Virus record (IMG/VR): IMGVR_UViG_3300028534_000013
Span: 57,868-121,867 of that record
DNA from: a virus
Length of the DNA: 64,000 bases
Reading direction: 5' to 3' (one strand)
Shown here one piece after another: positions 51,360 through 62,156 of the stretch (position 1 is its first letter; every line of letters starts with the position of its first letter). A program made the translations under genes and the position numbers. Under the pieces are notes generated by a model. That model did no database searches. It was given only the letters and a program-made list of their open reading frames with translations, and was not told the origin of the DNA.

Positions 51360-51379
51360 TTTCGTGGTATGTATATATG
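51360..51379 (+). promoter_or_regulatory. Phage-type promoter motif TTTCGTGGTATGTATATATG
   Basis: Repeated 20-mer upstream of a plus-strand cassette gene. Confidence 0.7.
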
Positions 51380-51442: not shown

Positions 51443-51592
51443 ATGAGAAATATTCTAGTAGTGAACGGTGTAGTGTATGTAAGTACAAGAGAAAATTTGA
51501 AAAAGTTGCAAAAAAAATTAGGCGGAGTCATCAATCCTCCTAAATGGGTGTGTAACCCGTTTAAAGGTGGATGGAAGATAGTTTCCGTCTAA
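51443..51592 (+). CDS. 49-aa protein MRNILVVNGVVYVSTRENLKKLQKKLGG... (not in the ORF track)
   Basis: AATTAAAAGG RBS module, downstream of the promoter motif. Confidence 0.7.
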   Translation: MRNILVVNGVVYVSTRENLKKLQKKLGGVINPPKWVCNPFKGGWKIVSV

Positions 51593-51992: not shown

Positions 51993-52012
51993 TTTCACGG
52001 TATATATAAATG
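51993..52012 (+). promoter_or_regulatory. Phage-type promoter motif TTTCACGGTATATATAAATG
   Basis: Repeat copy upstream of the radical SAM gene. Confidence 0.7.
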
Positions 52013-52051: not shown

Positions 52052-52867
52052 ATGAAAACAAAAATTTTAAAATACGGGAAAAAAATATGTGGAGAAACAA
52101 GAAAAGCCGACTTCCTGAGAGCTTTCGAAAGAGAAGTTGAAACTACTAGAATTTTTAGCTTTGGGGCGTGCAATTTTCACTGCCCGTATTGCAAAAGAGA
52201 TTGTCAGCTTGTAGATACAAACGGCAACCCAATTCGTGCAGAAGAGGTCCCATTTGAAGAGGTGCTAGCTGTGGTTGATGATGCTGTAGCAAAAGAGCAA
52301 AGAGTGAGGTTGTCAGGAGGGGACCCAGTTATGTTTCCAAAAGAGAGCCTTGCCATAGCTAAATATGCTATAGATAAGTATGGGCAAAAAATTAGCATTG
52401 CCCACAATGGTTCAGGTATGAGATATGTTAAATCTCTTGCCCCTTACCTGGACTATGCGGCAATTGACCTTAAGGGGCATGACGGAGAGGAGCTTGCAAT
52501 GAGAGCAGGTATACCTGAAAAGACTGGAGATAAAATGCTGAAAAGCACTCTTGCGGTTCAGGATTACCTTGCATCTCAAGGGGTACTGGTGGACGTAAGA
52601 ACACCAGTGTTCGACACAACCACTCTTGACAATCTACATAGTATGGCAGAACAAATTGTCAAAGGGGGAGTAGAGAATAAGTTCTGGACCCTCAGAAAAT
52701 ATAATCCGGTTCGCTGGATTGACTGGGGGACAATTCCTCAGGAGACTCTGCTCCAATACGCTGAAATTCTCAGCAAGGAGTTCCCAGAGCTTCCTATAGG
52801 GCTTCGCCTAAAATGGAGTGGGGGAGCAAAAGAATTTATAATTTTAAAAGGAGGCAAAAGAATATAG
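52052..52867 (+). CDS. Radical SAM protein (PflA/NrdG-like activase family)
   Basis: CNFHCPYC [4Fe-4S] motif, RLSGGDP, IAHNGS, AIDLKG, DVRTP; GC content visibly higher than the flanks. Confidence 0.9.
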   Translation: MKTKILKYGKKICGETRKADFLRAFEREVETTRIFSFGACNFHCPYCKRDCQLVDTNGNPIRAEEVPFEEVLAVVDDAVAKEQRVRLSGGDPVMFPKESLAIAKYAIDKYGQKISIAHNGSGMRYVKSLAPYLDYAAIDLKGHDGEELAMRAGIPEKTGDKMLKSTLAVQDYLASQGVLVDVRTPVFDTTTLDNLHSMAEQIVKGGVENKFWTLRKYNPVRWIDWGTIPQETLLQYAEILSKEFPELPIGLRLKWSGGAKEFIILKGGKRI

Positions 52868-52880: not shown

Positions 52881-53102
52881 TTACAATAATTGACTACCGG
52901 CTATTCCACCAACAAGGCCAGCAATCCCACTTTCTAATCCAGTTGTATGTGTTCCCCTAAAACCTAATTTGTGTGCCCCAGCTACAGCTAAGCCTGACGC
53001 AACACCTTTAAACAACTTAGACTTAAAAAACGAATTCTTGTTTTTGTTTTGCTGTATTTTTTCTGCAGCTATTTTATATAATTTTAGCAAAGAATACTCC
53101 AT
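52881..53102 (-). CDS. Small K-x-A protein with Gly-zipper C-terminus, cut off from its promoter/RBS
   Basis: LYKIAAEKI...GVASGLAVAG...GIAGLVGGIAG; no RBS immediately upstream. Confidence 0.65.
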   Translation of the reverse strand: MEYSLLKLYKIAAEKIQQNKNKNSFFKSKLFKGVASGLAVAGAHKLGFRGTHTTGLESGIAGLVGGIAGSQLL

Positions 53103-53199: not shown

Positions 53200-54297
53200 A
53201 TGTATTCCTACAAATTCAGAATATACCCAAAGAAAGAAATAGCAGAGTTGTTAATAAAATGGTTTGGATGTAGTAGATATGTGTGGAATTGGGGATTAGA
53301 CAGAAAAACTCAACACTATAAAGAAACAGGAAAATCCCTCTCATATCTACAATTAGCCAATGAATTAACTCTTTTAAAGAGGGAACAAACTTGGCTAAAA
53401 GAAGCACCATCTCAACCATTGCAACAGGTGCTTAAACAACTTGAAACTGCATTTGCAAAATTTTTTGAAAGGAAGGCTGGGTATCCTAAATTCAAATCCA
53501 AGAAGAACTCAACTCAATCCTTGCAAATTCCTCAGGGATTTAAAATTGAAGAGAATAAATTATATCTTCCAAAATTAAGAAAAGAACCTATAAAAATAAA
53601 ATTACATAGAAAAATCAAAGGCAATATCAAACGCATTGTAGTGTCTATGAATAAGATAGGTCAGTTTTTTGTATCAATTATAACTGACTATACTCCTGAA
53701 AAACTTCCTAAATCTAACAAAAAGATAGGGATAGATTTGGGATTAAAGCATTTTCTAATAACAAGCGACGGTAGAAAAATTCCACTACCTAAATGGTTTA
53801 AAAAAACTGAAATTCTAATTAAGAGAGTTCAAAGAAAGTTATCAAGAAAACAGAAAGGAAGTAAGAGATATGAAAAGGTTAGACAAAGATTAGCTAAACT
53901 TCAATTAAAAGTATCTAATCAAAGATTAGACTTCTTGCACAAACTTTCAAAACAGCTGATAGACGAAAACCAAGTCATAGCTATTGAGAGTTTGTGTATT
54001 AAAGGAATGATTAGAAATCATAAACTAGCTAAATATATTGCAAATGCAAGCTGGGGTAAATTCACTGAACTACTTAAATATAAAGCTAAATGGTATGGTA
54101 GAACTGTAGTGTCAGTAGATAGATTTGCCCCAACTTCAAAAATGTGCAACAAATGTGGATACATCAAACAAGACCTTAAACTCTCTGATAGAGCTTGGAC
54201 CTGCCCAAGATGTGGAACTTTCCACGATAGAGATATTAACGCTGCTCAAAACATTCTTGAGTTAGCGTTAACTACCGCTGGAACAGCGGGAAGTTAG
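53200..54297 (+). CDS. tnpB: TnpB RNA-guided endonuclease
   Basis: N-terminal HTH YKFRIYP...FGCSRYVWN; RuvC triad GIDLG / AIESL / DRDINAA intact; CNKCG...CPRCG Zn ribbon. Confidence 0.95.
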   Translation: MYSYKFRIYPKKEIAELLIKWFGCSRYVWNWGLDRKTQHYKETGKSLSYLQLANELTLLKREQTWLKEAPSQPLQQVLKQLETAFAKFFERKAGYPKFKSKKNSTQSLQIPQGFKIEENKLYLPKLRKEPIKIKLHRKIKGNIKRIVVSMNKIGQFFVSIITDYTPEKLPKSNKKIGIDLGLKHFLITSDGRKIPLPKWFKKTEILIKRVQRKLSRKQKGSKRYEKVRQRLAKLQLKVSNQRLDFLHKLSKQLIDENQVIAIESLCIKGMIRNHKLAKYIANASWGKFTELLKYKAKWYGRTVVSVDRFAPTSKMCNKCGYIKQDLKLSDRAWTCPRCGTFHDRDINAAQNILELALTTAGTAGS

Positions 54298-54427
54298 GCT
54301 CGTGGAGGTAGCTCTGACGGGGTTAACCTCTTAGGTTGGCTAGTCATCTACCGATGAAGCGAGAAGCTCCCTCTATAACTAGTTAGAGTTTAGAGGGAGT
54401 AGTTCACATAACACACGTCTTCCTTTT
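54265..54427 (+). ncRNA. Predicted TnpB omega/reRNA scaffold plus guide (guide about 54408-54427)
   Basis: Typical ACCGCTGGAACAGCGGGAAG...GCTCGTGGAG...GATGAAGCGAGAAGC...TCAC right-end sequence; boundaries approximate. Confidence 0.7.
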
Positions 54428-54471: not shown

Positions 54472-54491
54472 TTTCACGGTATGTATATATG
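54472..54491 (+). promoter_or_regulatory. Phage-type promoter motif TTTCACGGTATGTATATATG
   Basis: Repeat copy. Confidence 0.7.
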
Positions 54492-54541
54492 AGTGAAAGA
54501 GTTTACGGTCTCTAAAATCGTAAAAAATTAAAAGGATTAAA

Positions 54542-55000
54542 ATGTTTGAAGTAATAGCAAATTCTTTAGATTTCACGGTAAATCTTATGGCTTTTACAGC
54601 AGCGGTTGTTTATGGTTTTAAATATTTTAAAGCAAAAAAAGCGAGATTAAGTCTAGCTCAAGATGGGTATGTTTGGGTTGTAATTCAGGTAGGACATCCA
54701 GTGGTGGCGGTTTTCAAAGAACAATTCAAAACCGAACCGGATTACATAATTGACCCTGAAATTGAACTTGGTCATTTAGTTATATCTGGAACAAAAGATT
54801 ATCAAAAGATAATTAAAAGATTCAGGGATATACTAAAAGCCAACCAGGATAAAGAAATCAGGGTCATCACATCTGGGCCTACGGCTTTAAATGCGTTGCT
54901 TGGGCAAGCCGCAGGACCTCAATATGATGTAGTATGGTATCAATGGGATTTGGCTACGAAAAATTATAACCCCATTCCCCCATATGCAGGTTTACTGTAA
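54542..55000 (+). CDS. N-terminal TM plus SAVED/CARF-like single-lobe domain
   Basis: TM LMAFTAAVVYGF; C-terminal EIRVITSGPTALNALLGQ...VVWYQWD...YNP resembles the SAVED C-terminal signature (H-h-F..P..LA..LG...h-Y...Y.P). Confidence 0.5.
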   Translation: MFEVIANSLDFTVNLMAFTAAVVYGFKYFKAKKARLSLAQDGYVWVVIQVGHPVVAVFKEQFKTEPDYIIDPEIELGHLVISGTKDYQKIIKRFRDILKANQDKEIRVITSGPTALNALLGQAAGPQYDVVWYQWDLATKNYNPIPPYAGLL

Positions 55001-55024
55001 ATAAAAAAATTAAAAGGATAAAAA

Positions 55025-55099
55025 ATGTTAATAGGTGGAATATGTTTTTTTGGCGGAATGTTTATATTTCTTATGTGGAATTTAACGAGAGAGGTGTAG
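55025..55099 (+). CDS. 24-aa hydrophobic micro-ORF MLIGGICFFGGMFIFLMWNLTREV
   Basis: AATTAAAAGGA RBS module; ends 1 nt before the next ATG. Confidence 0.6.
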   Translation: MLIGGICFFGGMFIFLMWNLTREV

Positions 55100-55100
55100 C

Positions 55101-56051
55101 ATGAAAGTATTTTTAGCAAAAAACCTGAAAGAGGCAATTAGTGTAGCAGAGGAAGAAAAAACAAAAGGAGCTTTCGTTGTGGCTGTTGAAGCAGAGTGGG
55201 GAGATGAAGCGCTGGAATCACCTTACGCAGATATAGCTCTAAACCATCACGGGTCAAGGGCGTCTAACCCGTGTCCAAGCGAAATTGGAATTGTAGCACC
55301 ACAAGTGGTTGAGCTATGTAAAAAACATAAAAACAAAACTTACATAGTAAGCCACATAGACGCCGATACAATATTTGGAATTATGTGGTGCGAGGGGCTG
55401 TTTGACGCTGAAAAAGGATACGCTCCCGATTTAGTTCAAATAGCCAAAATGGTGGCGTTTACAGATAAGAACGGGCGTCACATAGCGATGAGTGAATTAG
55501 AAGCTTTAAACGATACAGATGCTTTTAAAAAGTGGCTCTCACTCGGGTTACTATTTAGCAGAAACGCCATATCATTTAAAGGGGATATATCTGAACATGT
55601 GGCTAAAATAATATATGCCGCATCTCAGATTATATTCTCAAAAAACATCAAAGAGAGCCAAATATACAAAGAGGCTCTCGAATGGGAAGCAGGCAAAGCT
55701 AAAAGCGCAAAAGAGGCAATCACATACAAAGACGATATTTTATTGGGGTTTGCCTCTAAAAAATTTATGTGCGACAATTATGCGTTGTTTGCGGATGAAG
55801 ACGGTATTGTAAGAAAAATAATCATCCAGTATGACTTGCATAATAAATCCATATTATTGGCCGCATATGACGCAAAGACGGCACAGGATTTTTTCGGTAA
55901 AAAAGGAGTAGTAGGGCCACTACAAGATTTTTTTGGAAATGAGGCAGGCGGCCATATCGCTATCGGAGGAAGCCCTAGAAATAAGCCTATGAAATGGCAA
56001 GATTATAAAAAATTTCTCAAATTCATTAAAAGCAAAATTTGGGAAAAATAA
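55101..56051 (+). CDS. Putative circularly permuted DHH-like phosphoesterase
   Basis: LNHHG precedes VSHIDADT (reverse of the usual RecJ/DHH order); later D..G; C-terminal AGGHIAIGGSP resembles the DHHA1 GGGH motif. Confidence 0.55.
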   Translation: MKVFLAKNLKEAISVAEEEKTKGAFVVAVEAEWGDEALESPYADIALNHHGSRASNPCPSEIGIVAPQVVELCKKHKNKTYIVSHIDADTIFGIMWCEGLFDAEKGYAPDLVQIAKMVAFTDKNGRHIAMSELEALNDTDAFKKWLSLGLLFSRNAISFKGDISEHVAKIIYAASQIIFSKNIKESQIYKEALEWEAGKAKSAKEAITYKDDILLGFASKKFMCDNYALFADEDGIVRKIIIQYDLHNKSILLAAYDAKTAQDFFGKKGVVGPLQDFFGNEAGGHIAIGGSPRNKPMKWQDYKKFLKFIKSKIWEK

Positions 56052-56056
56052 CTACA

Positions 56057-56076
56057 TTTCGTGGTATGTATATATG
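56057..56076 (+). promoter_or_regulatory. Phage-type promoter motif TTTCGTGGTATGTATATATG
   Basis: Part of a 48-nt repeat (56041-56088 vs 51344-51391, 3 mismatches). Confidence 0.72.
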
Positions 56077-56079
56077 AAA

Positions 56080-56185
56080 GGGAGATTTGCGACCTATGGC
56101 GCCCGTGAGGGGTAAAACAAATTTCCCTAAGCAAGGCAAGAGCCATAGGCAGGGTATGCCCTAACCCTGATGCCAAATAGGGTAA
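56080..56185 (+). ncRNA. Structured, pseudoknotted 5' leader RNA of unknown class
   Basis: Stems 56080-89/56118-27, 56093-100/56142-49, CCC-GTGA-GGG and 56150-55/56164-69. Confidence 0.45.
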
Positions 56186-56207
56186 AAATCAAATTAAAAG
56201 GACGAAA

Positions 56208-56411
56208 ATGAAATACACATTAAAAAATCTAAAAGTAAACTTCGGTGTAGATAATGGTGACAACAGTGTAATTACAGGTGCTAAAAATGAACTACATGGC
56301 GAGTTACTTATTGAAGAGTTGGAGATTGAATATAGTGCGGAAGAGTTTAAAGAGCTTATTGGAGTCGCAAAAGACGCAATCTCAATCATAAAAGAGCTAC
56401 GCAATCTTTAA
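56208..56411 (+). CDS. Small acidic hypothetical protein
   Basis: 67 aa with an AATTAAAAGGACGAAAATG start module. Confidence 0.75.
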   Translation: MKYTLKNLKVNFGVDNGDNSVITGAKNELHGELLIEELEIEYSAEEFKELIGVAKDAISIIKELRNL

Positions 56412-56415
56412 GATT

Positions 56416-56562
56416 GCTGCTCTGCTTTGAGTTCATTAAGGTGAATTGAAAGCAGCGTAAACGCCCGCCCGAGCCTATAATCGGGTCTGACCGCCAACCG
56501 GAGCGGGTTAATCCGGTCCTTGCACAGAATTCATTGCGGTGAATTGTATGCAGGGAAACCTG
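56416..56562 (+). ncRNA. Structured intergenic RNA with twin related hairpins
   Basis: GAGTTCATTAAGGTGAATTG (56429-48) and GAATTCATTGCGGTGAATTG (56527-46) cap two long stems; CAGG-GAAA-CCTG hairpin. Confidence 0.4.
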
Positions 56563-56586
56563 TAAATAAAAATTAAAAGGACGAAA

Positions 56587-56922
56587 ATGAAATTTGTAAA
56601 TCTAACGCCACATACAATAAAAATTGTAGCATTAGCTACAGACGGAAAAGAAATAGTAGTAGAACCAAGTGGAACAATTGCAAGAGTTGAAACTATTGAA
56701 AAAGTTATAGCAGAGGTTGACGGAATTCCAATCGTTAAAAGAACTTTTGGTGAAGTTAAAGGAATTCCTGCTCCGGAAGAAGGAGTGGGGTATATTGTCT
56801 CAGCTATGGTATTATCAGCTGTAAAAGGGCGCATAGATGTTTACGCCCCTGACACTGGTAGTACAGCTATCAGAAATGATAAGGGACAGATTGAAGCGGT
56901 GACCAGACTAGTAAGAGCTTAA
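56587..56922 (+). CDS. NLTPH-family protein, candidate Crn4-like ring nuclease/anti-CRISPR
   Basis: VNLTPH.I...PSG.IARV...IP.P.EG..YIVS...R.DV.APDTG..AIR..KGQI; family link recalled, not searched. Confidence 0.55.
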   Translation: MKFVNLTPHTIKIVALATDGKEIVVEPSGTIARVETIEKVIAEVDGIPIVKRTFGEVKGIPAPEEGVGYIVSAMVLSAVKGRIDVYAPDTGSTAIRNDKGQIEAVTRLVRA

Positions 56923-56924
56923 GC

Positions 56925-57262
56925 CTATGGGAAGGAAAACCCAAAAAACCCGTTTATGTGAGGTCGTTAAACATTTGGTAAGAAAAAGGTTATCGTCTTT
57001 CCGATGCGGGTAGGAAAGAGAATGAACGTTGTAATAATTCCCGTCTGCTATGCGGCAGCAGAGTGTAGAAGAGGTGCCTAGGTTTCCTCGGTTAGTTAGG
57101 CTGCACAGATGTTTATATTTAATAAGAAACCGAGGGTTAAATATATTTTAAAATATCTCTCCTGCCGCCATTGAGGGCACACATCAATGAGGAGAGACAA
57201 GGAGTTTATTATGTTAGCTACAGGGAGAAAGGGAGTGTGCATTTCCCCTTTCATTAGCACCT
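56925..57262 (+). ncRNA. About 340-nt densely base-paired region, possibly with a 24-aa ORF (57211-57285)
   Basis: At least six stems, including long-range AGGTGC/GCACCT pairing and a pseudoknot (see findings). Confidence 0.4.
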
Positions 57263-57292
57263 GTTTATTTTTTTGCTTACCTTAAAAGCAAC

Positions 57293-60200
57293 CTATTTCT
57301 TTTTCATCCCGTTTGGATATTTTGTCGCATGATAGAATCCTACATAAGGGTCAAGGTCTATTTTCATTTGTAAATTTTCATTGTTTCTGGCACCAAAAAG
57401 CTGTTTTGATGCAAGCATTTTATTTTTCACATCATCAATCGCTTTTTGAGTTAATGGTGCATGAATTGCCAATTGGTCACCGTCATAATCTGCGTTTTGC
57501 GGATTTTCGTGTAACGGGGAAATCCTCATAGCATTATCAGGACTAATCTTTGCGTATGCTCCAATCATGTTATGTTTGTGTAATGTAGGAGCTCTGTTTA
57601 TAACAACAGGTACCTCTTTCATTGTGTCTTCAAGAAATCTTTTTGCTGTATGCGTTCTTTCCTCTAAATGTTTTTGTATATCAGTAGAACTAAGACCGGC
57701 TTGTGACATTTTTCTTGTTACATGCGGTTCGAAAATCTTCCATGCAACTTCTTTAGGCAGCTCTACCTGGTCCATAGGCAAATATTTTTCTTTAGGAATA
57801 ATGACTGCTCTTCCGGATGTAAACACTTTGTTTTGTAATACGTTTTGTTGCCATAAACTTTCTTTAGGTTTTTTGCCAGCTATAATTTCCTGAACAGATT
57901 TAACACCTTTTCTTTTTAATACAGGGTCAGGGGAATCGTTAACTCCATACATTGCTCCTACGTGTTTTTGTAGTTCCGTTTTTAACTTGCCCGTTATAGG
58001 GTGGTTATCGCCAAATTCTTTTTTTGCTTCCTTTAAGGCGTTAGCGGCACTAATTATGGTTGAATAATGATTGTTTATATCGTGGTCAACCACTGTTCCG
58101 TTAGGCAATTTGCTTACCGGCCTATATTTAGTTGGAATTACAGGTATTTTGCTTATAAAAGCTACGTCTTTTAAGTGCATATCATTTTCTTTAAGTTTTT
58201 TTATAGCTTTTACAACTCTCACCCCCTGGTTTATTTTGTTAGGGTCATTTGTTTTTTTAATAGCCTGTTTGTATGTTTTTTCTACAGTGTTAAGATTTAC
58301 TTTGTTTAACTGTTTTTCTATTTCAGAAATTTTTCCTTCTTCTATTTTTTTATCCAATTGTTTTTCCGACATTCCAAGCACTTTGGCTACTATAGGCTTA
58401 TAGTTTGGATTAATTATTTTGTCGCCCAGTTCTATATGTCCATAATAGTTTCCATCACCCCCGAATATTTTAGGGTCATAAAAACCGTGAGGCACTTCGT
58501 TTAAAGTCCCATGTTTTAAACCAAAAGGAGACTTAACCTCACCATTGGACATTTTTTTAATATCTTTATCGGTCATAGGGACTACTTTTATTTTATCTCC
58601 TTCTTCCACTACATTCATATGCATTTGATGTAAAAGAGATTTGAACTTTTTAAGTGATGTTTTTTCTTCGGGCATAGGTAGAATGCTGTCTCCTCTCATA
58701 AAAGCATTGAACCAATCTCTGTTTTTTTGAGACCTTATTTTAAAAGTTTCCCTTAAGAAATCTTTTGCTCCGTGGGCGAGAAGCGCATTGACTTCCATGT
58801 TTGAAATAGAGCTTGCAGAAGTTTTACCGCCTTTTTTAGGCTGGTCCAATCCGTCTGTTGCCCCGTATCCTACTGCGCTCCAAGCACTGTCCCCTTGTTT
58901 AAATAATTTTTGAACATGATAGTTGCCTATAAAAACAGGGTTTTTTAAATAGGTTTTTCTAACTGGGTCATAAACCTTGTGATACAGTTTTACACCATGT
59001 TTTTCGGCCTCTTTTTTTGCAAATTCAGCAAGATTTTCATCCGTAAAATGAGGAATAACATACTGTTTTCCGGTCTTTTCTGAAACAGCTCCCAAGGTAG
59101 CCTCTATAATCTGCGCCGGATTTTGTCTTGATGCTACACCTGCACCGCCCATTATTACATCTATCGGTTTACCGTGTTCATCGTGAGGCATTTCTTTATC
59201 AGGTATAATTTTAGAAATTATCCCTTTATTACCTGAACGTCCGGCAATTTTATCTCCCACTTTTAAAGGAGCTTTGTATGTAAGTATCATTCTCACTTTA
59301 CTTCTGCTGTCGTCTATTTTGTCTAACTTTGTAGGATAATCGTACTTCCATTCTTCCATAAAAGGAGCATATCCTCCATATAACAGTTTTTTTACTTTTT
59401 CATTTGAAAATTTAACTTCATTTTCGTCTAGTTTTTTTACGCCCAAATAAACAGGTTCTCCTTTATGTAAATGGACGCCAGGTTTTAAAAAACCTTTTTC
59501 ATCATATTTGTTCAAATCTATTTTTTTGGCTATATCCGGAAACAGGTTTACAAACTTTTGCTTATTGAATTCTATGTTTTTATCTTTATCAATGTCTTTT
59601 TTGTGATAATGTAAAGATGTCATTTTTTTGGCGGCACTTTCACTAACTACAAAAGCGTCATTTCTTGTCCCGGGATACATCATAAAACCTACTCTTAAGT
59701 TTTTACCTAAAGCATATTGACCGTCTTTTGTATAGTTGCTGTCTGCAAGATGTTGTCCTGCTTTCACTTTATCTCCAACTTTAACGGTTGGGTAATGTTT
59801 GATATATGTTTTAGTGTTAAGAGGGGTTTTGTATGCTGAATAAGGAACCTTGTGTGTTTTTCCATCTTTATCCTTAACGTAAATCATGCCTTCTTTTTTG
59901 TCCATTTTTACAATTGTTCCGTCAACCGGAGCAACAGGGAGATGTTGTTTCGCATACTCAGTAAGAGGAACGTTTCCTTTGCTGTCTCCTATTACAACAT
60001 GTGGCCTATCTCTTTCGGCAAGAGGGAGTGCCTGTAAAATATGTTTTGAGGCCATTAGATTTCTGGTAGGGTCATTGCTGCTTAGCGCTCCCAATGAGTT
60101 CATTGCAGGACCAAACATTAACGATGCATCAGGAATCTGATAATCAGCCTGATGTATTTTGCCTTCAAACAAATTGTTTCCATGTCTTATCCCAACAGTT

Positions 60201-61549
60201 CCTTTTTTGTCCACATCAGGAAAAGCTACTTTTTTGTCCCATAAATCTTTTAATCTTTTTACTTCAAGCTTCCCTGTTTTCAGATTTTTTACTAACATTG
60301 CGGGATTGTTGTGTTTATCTACATATGCGTTTTCGGTTAAAGACAATGTTATGCCGGTATTAGACCCTTCTGGAGATTTAATCGGGTCTATATATCCTAA
60401 TTGTGACAAATGCAACCCTCTCATTGATGGAGTTATCACTTCACTTGATTTAACCCCTCCTTCACCCAATGGTGTTACGTCTGCGTTTATTTGCTGAATC
60501 TGTAAAGGGTTATATCCTTCCGGCATTCTTGAAATAGCAGACGTTGTTACGAAATTTTTACTGGCTTTATTTAAAAGAGGTTCATTCCATACATGTTCCA
60601 CTTTTGCTGGATTAAAACTGTTAAGTGGAGCTCTTTTTTTCCATATCTCTTTGTTTAGATTTCTTTTAACGCCTTCAACAATCAAATCTTCGGGCTTCAT
60701 TACTTTTTTATAAATTAAATTTTCCTTATCGTCAGCCTCAGCTTCACCCCTTTTAACTTTTACCACTTTTTTTGTAGCCGCCAATAATGCATCTTTATTT
60801 ACATGGTCAGTATTAACACCTAAAGTGTGTTTGGTTGCCTCCGGGTCTAGCTTTCCGCTTTGAATAGCTTCTTTTAATTGCGCCATTCCTTCAGGCGTAT
60901 TAGCTTTATCAGCTGAAACAACACCGGTTACTTCGGCTAATGATTTTAAAGTTTTATTCAAGTCGCTTTTTGATTTAGTCAAAACGTACAGCTTATCACC
61001 TAATTTTTTCTTAATTTCATCATCGGACGCTCCAAGTAATTTATAGATATCATAAGCGTTATATTTTCTGCTGCCTACTTCCACCCATAAATCATCCTTA
61101 GATTGAGGTGTAACTACTTTCATACTTTGACCGCCCGCTGTATTAAACATTGTTTCAACGTTTCCGTTATTTTTAACCATCGTGTATCCGGACGGCTTCA
61201 ATCTAAATTGATGAGGAATAACATAATGTGACCCTTCCACTAAATATGTCCCCAGTTTGTTTTTATATGGTATAGAGCCGACATACACTTTTTTTTCATC
61301 TTCCACTTTTCCAGTATGTTTGTTTACTACTTTAGCTGTGGCATATACTTTTGTGTGAACCGATTTTTTCTTTTTTAGCGCTTCCTGCATGGAGTGCCAA
61401 TCATCTTTAGGGTCTTTAAATTCTATGTTTTCAAAATGTAAAACTTTATGTGCCCCGCTAATAGGATTATTTTCTAGGTGTTCTTTTATTTTTTGTTTTA
61501 TATCTTCATTGTGTTTCTCAGGGCTAGTTATAAGTTTTTTAAATTCCAT
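57293..61549 (-). CDS. rpoB: Fused RNA polymerase beta plus beta-prime N-terminal (catalytic) half
   Basis: Beta motifs GSIPY...GTYLVEG, YIDPIKSPEGSNTG, DPTRNLMAS..LQALPL, GDKIAGRSGNKG, SRQNPAQIIE, GG...SNMEVNAL; then beta-prime motifs GFYDPKIFG, GHIEL, IPVIPTKYRP, SGRAVI, NRAPTLH and NADYDGDQ. Confidence 0.95.
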   Translation of the reverse strand: MEFKKLITSPEKHNEDIKQKIKEHLENNPISGAHKVLHFENIEFKDPKDDWHSMQEALKKKKSVHTKVYATAKVVNKHTGKVEDEKKVYVGSIPYKNKLGTYLVEGSHYVIPHQFRLKPSGYTMVKNNGNVETMFNTAGGQSMKVVTPQSKDDLWVEVGSRKYNAYDIYKLLGASDDEIKKKLGDKLYVLTKSKSDLNKTLKSLAEVTGVVSADKANTPEGMAQLKEAIQSGKLDPEATKHTLGVNTDHVNKDALLAATKKVVKVKRGEAEADDKENLIYKKVMKPEDLIVEGVKRNLNKEIWKKRAPLNSFNPAKVEHVWNEPLLNKASKNFVTTSAISRMPEGYNPLQIQQINADVTPLGEGGVKSSEVITPSMRGLHLSQLGYIDPIKSPEGSNTGITLSLTENAYVDKHNNPAMLVKNLKTGKLEVKRLKDLWDKKVAFPDVDKKGTVGIRHGNNLFEGKIHQADYQIPDASLMFGPAMNSLGALSSNDPTRNLMASKHILQALPLAERDRPHVVIGDSKGNVPLTEYAKQHLPVAPVDGTIVKMDKKEGMIYVKDKDGKTHKVPYSAYKTPLNTKTYIKHYPTVKVGDKVKAGQHLADSNYTKDGQYALGKNLRVGFMMYPGTRNDAFVVSESAAKKMTSLHYHKKDIDKDKNIEFNKQKFVNLFPDIAKKIDLNKYDEKGFLKPGVHLHKGEPVYLGVKKLDENEVKFSNEKVKKLLYGGYAPFMEEWKYDYPTKLDKIDDSRSKVRMILTYKAPLKVGDKIAGRSGNKGIISKIIPDKEMPHDEHGKPIDVIMGGAGVASRQNPAQIIEATLGAVSEKTGKQYVIPHFTDENLAEFAKKEAEKHGVKLYHKVYDPVRKTYLKNPVFIGNYHVQKLFKQGDSAWSAVGYGATDGLDQPKKGGKTSASSISNMEVNALLAHGAKDFLRETFKIRSQKNRDWFNAFMRGDSILPMPEEKTSLKKFKSLLHQMHMNVVEEGDKIKVVPMTDKDIKKMSNGEVKSPFGLKHGTLNEVPHGFYDPKIFGGDGNYYGHIELGDKIINPNYKPIVAKVLGMSEKQLDKKIEEGKISEIEKQLNKVNLNTVEKTYKQAIKKTNDPNKINQGVRVVKAIKKLKENDMHLKDVAFISKIPVIPTKYRPVSKLPNGTVVDHDINNHYSTIISAANALKEAKKEFGDNHPITGKLKTELQKHVGAMYGVNDSPDPVLKRKGVKSVQEIIAGKKPKESLWQQNVLQNKVFTSGRAVIIPKEKYLPMDQVELPKEVAWKIFEPHVTRKMSQAGLSSTDIQKHLEERTHTAKRFLEDTMKEVPVVINRAPTLHKHNMIGAYAKISPDNAMRISPLHENPQNADYDGDQLAIHAPLTQKAIDDVKNKMLASKQLFGARNNENLQMKIDLDPYVGFYHATKYPNGMKKK

Positions 61550-61559
61550 GTCGGTCCTT

Positions 61560-62156
61560 CTATAGGGTATATGTTTTAATTTGTTTTGTAGAATCTACGA
61601 CTCTTGCCGATTGCCAGTTAATACTATCTGTTTCCGTAATTTTTAAACCAATAAGGTCTTTACTTTTAACTTTATCATAATAACCGGTTACCTCTAATAT
61701 TAACGATGGAATAGGAGCTTTTGCTACCGCTTTGGGCTCTCCTGATATTGGTATAAAAAACATTGGTTCATACACCATCGTTTTGTTTTGATATGTGATA
61801 AGTTGAGCGTCAGGAGCTTGAATGCCGGCTTCTGTTTTGTTTATTTTCCCTGGTTTTTCTATTTTCACATACGCAGTTGTGTAAAAAGTATAGGGAATGC
61901 CTTTTATGCTTTCCTGCCCTTCCATAATAATAGTTCCGTTGTCGTCAACATCTCCAGAGCTACCGTCGCTCGAACCAGTTGAGCTTCCACTTCCTGAGCT
62001 ACTATCTGTTGAAGCTGGAGCGCTTCTCTCTACATTATCAGTTATAACTGTTGTAGTTGTTTTTATTGCTACAGGTATTCTGTATAGTTCCCCGCTTAAT
62101 GTCATAAATCTGGCCGCAATCAACTCTTTAGATGTTGATTTTTTAATTATACTCAT
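61560..62156 (-). CDS. Hypothetical protein with Ser/Gly linker
   Basis: 198 aa; SSSGSGSSTGSSDGSSGD. Confidence 0.7.
   Translation of the reverse strand: MSIIKKSTSKELIAARFMTLSGELYRIPVAIKTTTTVITDNVERSAPASTDSSSGSGSSTGSSDGSSGDVDDNGTIIMEGQESIKGIPYTFYTTAYVKIEKPGKINKTEAGIQAPDAQLITYQNKTMVYEPMFFIPISGEPKAVAKAPIPSLILEVTGYYDKVKSKDLIGLKITETDSINWQSARVVDSTKQIKTYTL

Follow-up and report, generated by a model that had tools for sequence, protein, structure and literature searches.

Five consecutive open reading frames (ORFs) on the plus strand of a large phage genome raise the question of whether they act together as one pathway against cyclic-nucleotide immune signalling or share little more than their position. 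They are located at positions 54472-56922 of the window, a term used here for the whole 64,000-nucleotide stretch that was analysed, which corresponds to bases 57868-121867 of the 176,653-bp virus record IMGVR_UViG_3300028534_000013 (rated as complete by CheckV). The phage encodes a multisubunit RNA polymerase (RNAP), including a fused beta/beta-prime protein of 1418 amino acids (aa; 57293-61549, minus strand). The five ORFs lie directly upstream of this gene, within a plus-strand accessory block with a GC content of 36-47% (genome: 33%). An initial annotation had reported five consecutive plus-strand genes and two copies of a phage promoter motif, all of which were found at their places, and had interpreted them as one co-expressed module. 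Our analysis favours another reading, to which we assign a probability of roughly 60%, namely that of a mosaic of accessory genes next to the RNAP gene, which forms an anti-defence hotspot directed against type III CRISPR-type nucleotide signalling and not a single co-evolved five-gene pathway. Its cassettes would have been acquired independently; they have one leader in common, and several also share the promoter-like motif.

The most informative gene is ORF4 (111 aa, 56587-56922, plus strand). The corresponding protein matched the PADLOC model Unk_01 (PDLC01138) over its full length (residues 1-110, E = 2.2e-23), a model described there as "unknown small protein, sometimes fused to CARF", and also the type III-D accessory family C3a69 (1.6e-11). 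Its only significant PDB sequence match was Crn4b (9r7b, E = 1.4e-3), in which the NLTPH motif is aligned and which covers residues 3-88 only. Among 112 homologues, N5-L-T7-P-H9 and R96 are conserved to 97-99% (T7 and H9 99%, R96 97%). T7, H9 and R96 fit the Crn4a triad T13/H15/R112, given an offset of 6 and a Crn4b-type hairpin that is about ten residues shorter; the equivalence of R96 and R112 rests on position, the pairwise PDB alignment ending at residue 88. According to Chi et al. (PMC12830947), the Crn4 (= Unk01) proteins are ring nucleases of small size that form dimers and cut the cyclic oligoadenylates (cOAs) cA3 and cA4 and, in the case of Crn4a, also cA6. In the same study H15 and R112 were essential in Crn4a, H17 and R103 are the catalytic His and Arg of Crn4b, and Crn4b orthologues known from phages and plasmids were viewed as likely anti-CRISPRs. 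The family is further characterised by a homodimer of arm-exchanged beta-hairpin fold and by a metal-independent cleavage that yields linear products with a 2',3'-cyclic phosphate. We found homologues of ORF4 in 22 deposited records of phages, with Bacillus, Paenibacillus, Microcystis and Thermobifida represented as well as archaeal viruses. Judged by its sequence, ORF4 belongs to the known family Crn4 with the catalytic His and Arg in place, as the initial annotation had suspected from the NLTPH motif, and this membership suggests a ring-nuclease activity. By analogy, the protein would act as a dimer, cut cA3 and cA4 to linear products via H9 and R96 and thereby turn off cOA-activated effectors.

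That ORF4 is an exchangeable part of this site became apparent from a sibling phage (IMGVR_UViG_3300026484_000528, loci L010 and L016), which aligns to the window at 54522-55054 and 55179-56511 with 78-79% identity and at 57284-61947 with 85% identity. The sibling keeps ORF1, ORF2, ORF3 and the RNAP gene and lacks the micro-ORF. Its alignment holds up to approximately 56511-56520 and resumes from 57284. The Crn4 cassette in between (about 56521-57283, plus strand; composed of a hairpin, the shared leader and ORF4, followed by GC-rich DNA of about 360 nt that is non-coding) is replaced by an unlike 650-bp segment with a minus-strand gene of 192 aa. Directly upstream of ORF1, the sibling contains an AcrIII-1/DUF1874 gene in a GC-rich cassette (PF08960, 5.2e-11, above the cut-off; Csx16, 1.8e-9). 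AcrIII-1 was not found in the genome of the window, nor Crn4 in the 48-kb record of the sibling, which according to CheckV is 26% complete. The core that these closely related phages have in common is flanked on one side by one ring-nuclease family in the window and on the other side by an unrelated family in the sibling. Because the sibling has AcrIII-1 and the window has Crn4 around this core, the site appears to be an anti-defence hotspot into which such genes are swapped, and the pattern is expected where cOA-signalling immunity exerts selection. The anti-type III CRISPR theme of the site, which is derived chiefly from this swap of Crn4 and AcrIII-1, is credible. As a side observation, the AcrIII-1 block of the sibling (L016:1-780) is visibly G+C-richer than the surrounding phage DNA and has long non-coding flanks that look structured. 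It resembles the GC-rich non-coding DNA beside the Crn4 gene (56923-57290) and gave no Rfam match.

The accessory genes share upstream sequences. Across all 176,653 bp of the genome, the 15-mer GGTATGTATATATGA has exactly three perfect copies (window positions 51366, 54478 and 56063). All are on the plus strand and confined to 4.7 kb, and they have about ten more flanking bases in common. Two of them are those within the stretch, 5' of ORF1 (54472-54492, core 54478-54492) and 5' of ORF3 (56057-56077, core 56063-56077). A degenerate plus-strand copy is located at 51999, ahead of a radical S-adenosylmethionine (SAM) gene. When up to three mismatches were allowed, nine matches were found compared to 3.05 expected, a number that none of 100 shuffles reached. 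Each copy precedes a plus-strand accessory gene by 38-130 nt, and the sibling possesses a copy with one mismatch at the matching position ahead of ORF3. In addition, the exact leader ATTAAAAGGA precedes four of the five ORFs and the radical SAM gene. The exception is ORF2, whose start codon lies one base past the stop codon of the micro-ORF and which has its own GAGG. This arrangement of motif and leader is real and far beyond chance, the motif being a putative promoter. The possibility that it forms a hairpin was dismissed, a palindrome being present in just one copy, and scans for sigma-70 promoter and terminator patterns yielded no excess over background. Below the first exact copy (51366), a basic ORF of 49 aa (isoelectric point 10.5; 51443-51592, plus strand) with a near-identical leader was detected, which adds one more to this group of small accessory cassettes.

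The border of the Crn4 cassette is marked by RNA structure. Between ORF3 and ORF4, the segment 56412-56580 (plus strand) contains two similar strong hairpins (fold z = -4.2) on either side of a GC-rich segment. The first hairpin belongs to a conserved GC-rich structured element 3' of ORF3 (hairpin plus GC-rich stem region, 56412-56520, plus strand). It is kept in the sibling (L016:2630-2745), where changes on both sides of the stem preserve pairing. The second hairpin is the start of the Crn4 cassette. Both may be recombination or processing sites, and because they part ORF3 from ORF4, the co-transcription of ORF4 from the 56063 motif remains a putative link. The 5' leader between this motif and ORF3 (56078-56200, plus strand) forms a long stem with interruptions (-37.9 kcal/mol, z = -2.25), for which an Rfam search gave no match. 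ORF3 itself (67 aa, isoelectric point 4.7, 56208-56411, plus strand) had no family match in Pfam, PADLOC or NCBIfam and no useful neighbour in the Atlas. It is conserved in the sibling only (58% identity), again after ORF2. The micro-ORF (24 aa, hydrophobic, MLIGG...TREV; 55025-55099, plus strand) is doubtful as a gene. Though preceded by the shared leader, it lies in a stretch of about 60 nt that is absent from the sibling, in which the leader runs directly into ORF2. It is probably not a conserved gene; the initial annotation had counted it, as a membrane micro-peptide, among the parts of the module.

ORF1 (152 aa, 54542-55000, plus strand) had been called SAVED-like, a description that holds at the level of the fold. 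It matched the PADLOC models SAVED4--SAVED (2.8e-9) and SAVED_TM (1.1e-8), as well as the SAVED profiles of Pfam (PF18145, 3.2e-5, 24.2 bits, positions 100-186 of 190 only) and NCBIfam (6.4e-6, 25.9 bits), the last two below their curated cut-offs of 26.2 and 33 bits. The matches from the three libraries cover the C-terminal 80-100 residues. In the AlphaFold2 model, which has a predicted local distance difference test (pLDDT) value of 66.8, a long N-terminal helix is followed by one Rossmann-like lobe, and the soluble part comprises about 110 residues. Foldseek searches of the PDB placed SAVED-CHAT (8tl0) first and AcrIII-2 (9r8s) second, followed by Csm6, Cap5, Cap4 and CalpL. The similarity to AcrIII-2 (E = 1.3e-3, template modelling score 0.48, 19-20% identity) is structural, sequence similarity to this protein, whose catalytic residues are R96, K99 and H128, being undetectable. 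The best matches in the AlphaFold database were short stand-alone SAVED proteins (4.9e-8, 29% identity), and the nearest Atlas cluster (0.91) consists to 70% of SAVED proteins. SAVED domains are defined by two fused CARF-like lobes; ORF1 has one lobe only. Taken as modelled, ORF1 has a CARF/SAVED-type fold. No relative of it was found among the isolated phages searched.

The single lobe of ORF1 is predicted to pair with itself. Modelled as a homodimer, residues 40-152 of ORF1 reached a score of 0.82, compared to 0.00 for the best of three controls. This mark was attained by 20 of 30 proteins solved as one-chain pairs and by one of 23 solved as single chains, counts that apply only roughly here, because our own alignment was used for ORF1. 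The homodimer runs agreed in at least 98% of contacts, with a partner pLDDT of at least 91, and the predicted interface (110-126 and 130-135) coincides with the most conserved, invariant stretch of the protein. The result may reflect a likeness to solved CARF/SAVED dimers as well as binding. The N-terminal helix is likely, but not certain, to be a membrane anchor, its maximum Kyte-Doolittle value over 19 residues (1.41) being borderline for a membrane span. A basic stretch (KAKKAR) follows directly after it and suggests that the sensor domain is cytoplasmic. ORF1 would be a probably membrane-tethered protein. Two copies of it are predicted to pair via the residues that are most conserved and to build a CARF-like platform of two-fold symmetry at the cytoplasmic face of the membrane. 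The ligand would most likely be a nucleotide of symmetric cyclic or SAM-linked type, with ORF1 acting as a sponge, a decoy or a slow ring nuclease, both ligand and role being putative.

A membrane anchor joined to a sensor domain is also the layout of known membrane effectors. It is conceivable, though in our view very unlikely, that ORF1 is such an effector, comparable to Cam1, Cap14 or the Panoptes CARF-TM protein, in a signalling or exclusion device owned by the phage. It would be gated by a cyclic nucleotide produced either by the host or by a GGDEF protein of the phage itself and would time lysis or exclude rival phages, with Crn4 and ORF2 as off-switches. This idea accords with the match to SAVED_TM, with the occurrence of cellular Crn4 beside effectors as a reset enzyme (PMC12830947) and with a stand-alone GGDEF-domain protein of 184 aa encoded by the phage (4677-5231, plus strand), directly 3' of the gene for the RNAP beta-prime C-terminal part. 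The latter matched PF00990 (6.7e-18) and may be a nucleotide cyclase. However, this match covers just profile positions 2-93 of 161 and the gene is about 50 kb away. Moreover, ORF1 has one borderline hydrophobic helix instead of a pore-forming module with several transmembrane segments, the sibling keeps ORF1 but has no Crn4, and no Cas10 or CD-NTase turned up in the region, where no search was aimed at either.

More can be learned from the company that ORF1 keeps elsewhere. In all four independent related loci (L001, L003, L012 and L013), an ORF1 homologue adjoins a homologue of the radical SAM gene, with varying gene order, and neither ORF2 nor ORF3 or ORF4 was found nearby. What recurs beside ORF1 is the radical SAM gene rather than ORF2 or ORF4. 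In the window, this gene (271 aa, 52052-52867, plus strand; Pfam Radical_SAM, 5.5e-11) lies outside the stretch of five ORFs. It is separated from ORF1 by an ORF of 73 aa (52881-53102, minus strand) and by a TnpB insertion of the IS605 family (53200-54297, plus strand; Pfam OrfB_IS605, 4e-27, and Cas12f1-like_TNB, 1.2e-25). No relative has TnpB between the two genes. In the favoured reading, the radical SAM enzyme would be the real functional partner of ORF1, parted from it here by the insertion. Three of the four related loci contain in addition a protein of 127 aa (L003:4546-4929, L001:6679-7065, L013:1530-1913), which matched the type III-B CRISPR accessory family Mvol_0529 (PADLOC, 5e-34; family defined in PMC6546367), and two of the loci a protein of 171-180 aa. 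The genome of the window has no homologue of the 127-aa or the 171-aa companion. Among named families, the radical SAM enzyme is most similar to NrdG2 (1e-14) and viperin (2.8e-10), although both matches fall far short of the cut-off. A 56-aa ORF elsewhere in the genome (G000:C1:162864-162968, minus strand, outside the window) resembles NrdD in its C-terminal glycyl-radical region (24.9 bits, slightly below the cut-off) and could be the target of an NrdG-like enzyme. Concerning the TnpB insertion, a GC-rich segment directly after its stop codon (54298-54410, plus strand, up to 48% GC) is compatible with a guide (omega) RNA region. Cellular relatives of this TnpB, mostly from Bacillaceae, are at best about 42% identical, which is too distant to name a host. 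Scans of the window, the region and the sibling locus for tRNAs and Rfam families gave nothing meaningful.

ORF2 (316 aa, 55101-56051, plus strand) is the largest gene of the stretch and is divergent. It gave no match in Pfam, NCBIfam, PADLOC or PDB sequence searches, including the DHH (PF01368) and DHHA1 (PF02272) profiles, and a family profile of 80 sequences did not retrieve a DHH chain from the PDB either. Since sequence searches of the PDB found no DHH enzyme, the DHH fold of ORF2 is seen through structure alone. In its model (pLDDT 85.7, predicted template modelling score 0.83), the best 50 of 50 Foldseek matches in the PDB were DHH enzymes (PAP phosphatase, NrnA, RecJ, GdpP, PggH, DhhP). 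With VIA-align, the whole protein reached a Z value of 12.2 against PAP phosphatase (8a8k; 242 residues) and the DHHA1 domain alone one of about 11 (root-mean-square deviation 2.1-2.2). Among 80 family members, E30, H49, H50, S84, H85, D87, D89, G283 and G284 are invariant, and E32, D122, H127 and R293 nearly so. The conserved set E30/E32, H49-H50, H85/D87/D89, D122 and G283-G284(-H285) can be compared with the canonical order DxD, D, DHH, D and GGGH. We read the motifs of ORF2 as collinear and compressed, with ExE, NHH in place of DHH, DxDT as the fourth motif and AGGH, and the published position of the DHH motif in NrN (85-87) fits this predicted arrangement. The initial annotation had proposed a permuted DHH enzyme. 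The DHH/DHHA1 fold stands, whereas the circular permutation found no support, since aligners bound to sequence order match canonical DHH/DHHA1 enzymes end to end. Foldseek spans both domains, and in VIA-align the first and last aligned residues are 1 and 316 of the model and 27 and 315 of the 8a8k chain. On the strength of the model, ORF2 is a two-domain DHH/DHHA1-fold enzyme of an undescribed family that Pfam does not cover. An exhaustive profile search found 515 representative clusters of this family at 50% identity. One distant fused member showed a weak DHHA1 match (0.0091), and ten long fused members contained no informative partner domains in Pfam.

Since NrN is a phosphodiesterase acting on SAM-AMP in CorA-type type III CRISPR systems, its appearance among the structural matches of ORF2 (complex with SAH-AMP, 9lqc; Z 10.7, 16% identity) bears on the question of a common pathway. 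The initial annotation had pictured one co-expressed early module that senses or sponges, then opens and degrades second messengers. Spelled out as a rival to our reading, the module would be co-evolved, ORF1 would sense or sponge a messenger, the micro-peptide would help at the membrane, ORF2 and Crn4 would open and degrade the messenger and the acidic ORF3 would be accessory. The genes are adjacent and co-directional, they share a leader under two motif copies, and all three enzyme or sensor folds suit nucleotide messengers. The NrN match, however, is tied with many other DHH enzymes (PAP phosphatase, RecJ and NrnA lie within about 1.5 Z units), for which reason the reading of ORF2 as specifically an NrN orthologue was set aside. 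Neither a sequence match to NrN nor a CorA gene nearby was found. Furthermore, the genes part in every comparison. The sibling is devoid of Crn4 and the micro-ORF, the relatives of ORF1 occur without ORF2, ORF3 and ORF4 nearby and those of ORF2 without ORF1, Crn4 or AcrIII-1, and the hairpins between ORF3 and ORF4 speak against a simple operon. Of the earlier proposal, the anti-type III CRISPR role has gained support from the AcrIII-1 gene of the sibling at the same site, while the integrated module of five genes has become highly improbable because they are distributed independently in relatives.

The relatives of ORF2 point in another direction. In other large phages, they are encoded in co-directional blocks with genes for DNA ligase, an RNAP beta-like subunit, a PolB exonuclease domain or QueC, others near genes for single-stranded DNA-binding protein (SSB), dCTP deaminase or GapR, and all contexts examined were phage-like or large-phage contigs. 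A search of cellular genomes with a 7-sequence alignment retrieved no ORF2 relatives, the 80-sequence alignment being too diverse as a query, and the isolated phages searched contained one weak relative. On large phage contigs (L019-L024, 130-281 kb), ORF2-family genes were repeatedly observed about 1.5-3 kb downstream of the RNAP beta-like subunit gene. These contexts hint at a core nucleic-acid role of the family and argue against a dedicated anti-signalling role. In our reading, ORF2 would be a phosphoesterase of the DHH/DHHA1 type that depends on metal and whose substrate is a small nucleotide or a short oligonucleotide. It could finish off linear products, but the contexts of its relatives equally point to general nucleic-acid metabolism.

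The same contexts would be explained if only Crn4 served anti-defence and its neighbours were unrelated passengers, that is, ORF2 a housekeeping phosphoesterase for nucleic acids or nanoRNA, the radical SAM enzyme a glycyl-radical activase and ORF1 a membrane protein outside immunity. The similarity to NrdG2, the NrdD-like ORF and the nature of the Crn4 cassette as a separate insertion are in line with this explanation. Nevertheless, we consider it unlikely, because a second, unrelated ring nuclease is located directly upstream of ORF1 in the sibling, because the sensor fold of ORF1 is otherwise known from cyclic-nucleotide immune signalling and because, in relatives, a gene homologous to an accessory family of type III-B CRISPR is part of the ORF1 cluster. 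According to another idea, which is in our opinion distinctly unlikely, neighbours of Crn4 make up a counter-defence module of their own. This new phage module would consist of the radical SAM enzyme, the membrane-tethered SAVED dimer with its single lobes and, in relatives, the Mvol_0529 homologue. A type III messenger would be trapped by the dimer at the membrane, the site of action of effectors such as Cam1, CorA or CARF-TM. The radical SAM enzyme would destroy or alter a messenger containing an adenosyl group or SAM, for example SAM-AMP, and the DHH/DHHA1 enzyme would clear linear products.

The reading as an anti-defence hotspot has to be weighed against several points. ORF1 scores under the cut-offs of both Pfam and NCBIfam, the confidence of its model is only moderate and its hydrophobic helix is borderline as a membrane span. 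ORF1, ORF2 and ORF3 adjoin each other in the window and one close sibling only. Besides the position of ORF2 relatives in replication and transcription clusters, four large records with such relatives (G002-G005) contained no Crn4 and no above-cut-off match to AcrIII-1. The linkage of ORF1 to the radical SAM gene was seen within one related phage group, so that shared ancestry may explain part of it, and the radical SAM enzyme, being most similar to NrdG-type activases among named families, may have an unrelated job. Finally, the activities and ligands at this site are putative, as is the early timing of expression.

To our knowledge, very few viral counter-measures against type III CRISPR signalling have been described, namely AcrIII-1, AcrIII-2, viral Crn4 orthologues and SAM-AMP lyases. 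The swap of two unrelated ring nucleases at one site in sibling phages points to this site as one in which further anti-signalling genes may be sought. Two candidates adjoin the ring nucleases, a half-SAVED protein with a probable membrane anchor and a link to a radical SAM gene, and a large DHH/DHHA1-like family absent from Pfam. While Crn4 is of a kind already known, these two are new variants with putative functions. Should ORF1 or its partner act on messengers, a membrane-localised or radical-chemistry route would be added to immune evasion. If they do not, there is still the ORF2 family, a hitherto undescribed enzyme retained next to the replication and transcription genes of several large phages (records of 130-281 kb).

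Compared with known systems, ORF4 is closest to its counterparts. It resembles the Crn4 proteins (Crn4a of A. procaprae and Crn4b, 9r7b) in the full-length profile match, the catalytic His within NLTPH, the Arg and the small, Crn4b-like size. On the other hand, its similarity to the solved Crn4b is distant and it lacks the N-terminal extension, and, as opposed to Crn4 of CRISPR loci, it resides on a cassette beside a phage RNAP gene. The AcrIII-1/Crn2 gene of the sibling presumably does the same job as ORF4 at the same site, even though Crn4 is unrelated to it in fold and family. ORF2 has the two-domain fold in common with DHH/DHHA1 enzymes such as NrnA, PAP phosphatase (8a8k), GdpP, PggH, archaeal RecJ and the CRISPR-associated NrN (9lqa-c), as well as, in the predicted collinear arrangement, an invariant His-His and Asp-x-Asp in the first domain and GG(H) in the second. 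What separates it from these enzymes is the absence of profile-detectable similarity, a Glu-x-Glu instead of the first Asp-x-Asp and a very short spacing of the first motifs. Unlike NrN, it is not linked to CorA or CRISPR loci. The soluble domain of ORF1 belongs to the same fold class as AcrIII-2 (9r8s; PMC12751052) and the SAVED sensors SAVED-CHAT (8tl0), CalpL, Cap4 and Cap5, and like AcrIII-2 it is a virus-encoded sensor domain without an effector domain. By contrast, ORF1 has one lobe in place of a fused pair, a hydrophobic N-terminal anchor, a predicted symmetric homodimer rather than head-to-tail stacks, and a linkage to a radical SAM gene. With Cam1, Cap14 and the type II CARF-TM protein of Panoptes (PMC13577387), ORF1 as predicted would share the combination of a membrane anchor and a dimeric cyclic-nucleotide sensor, but it is much smaller, has a single borderline N-terminal transmembrane helix, is encoded by a phage and has no cyclase partner nearby.

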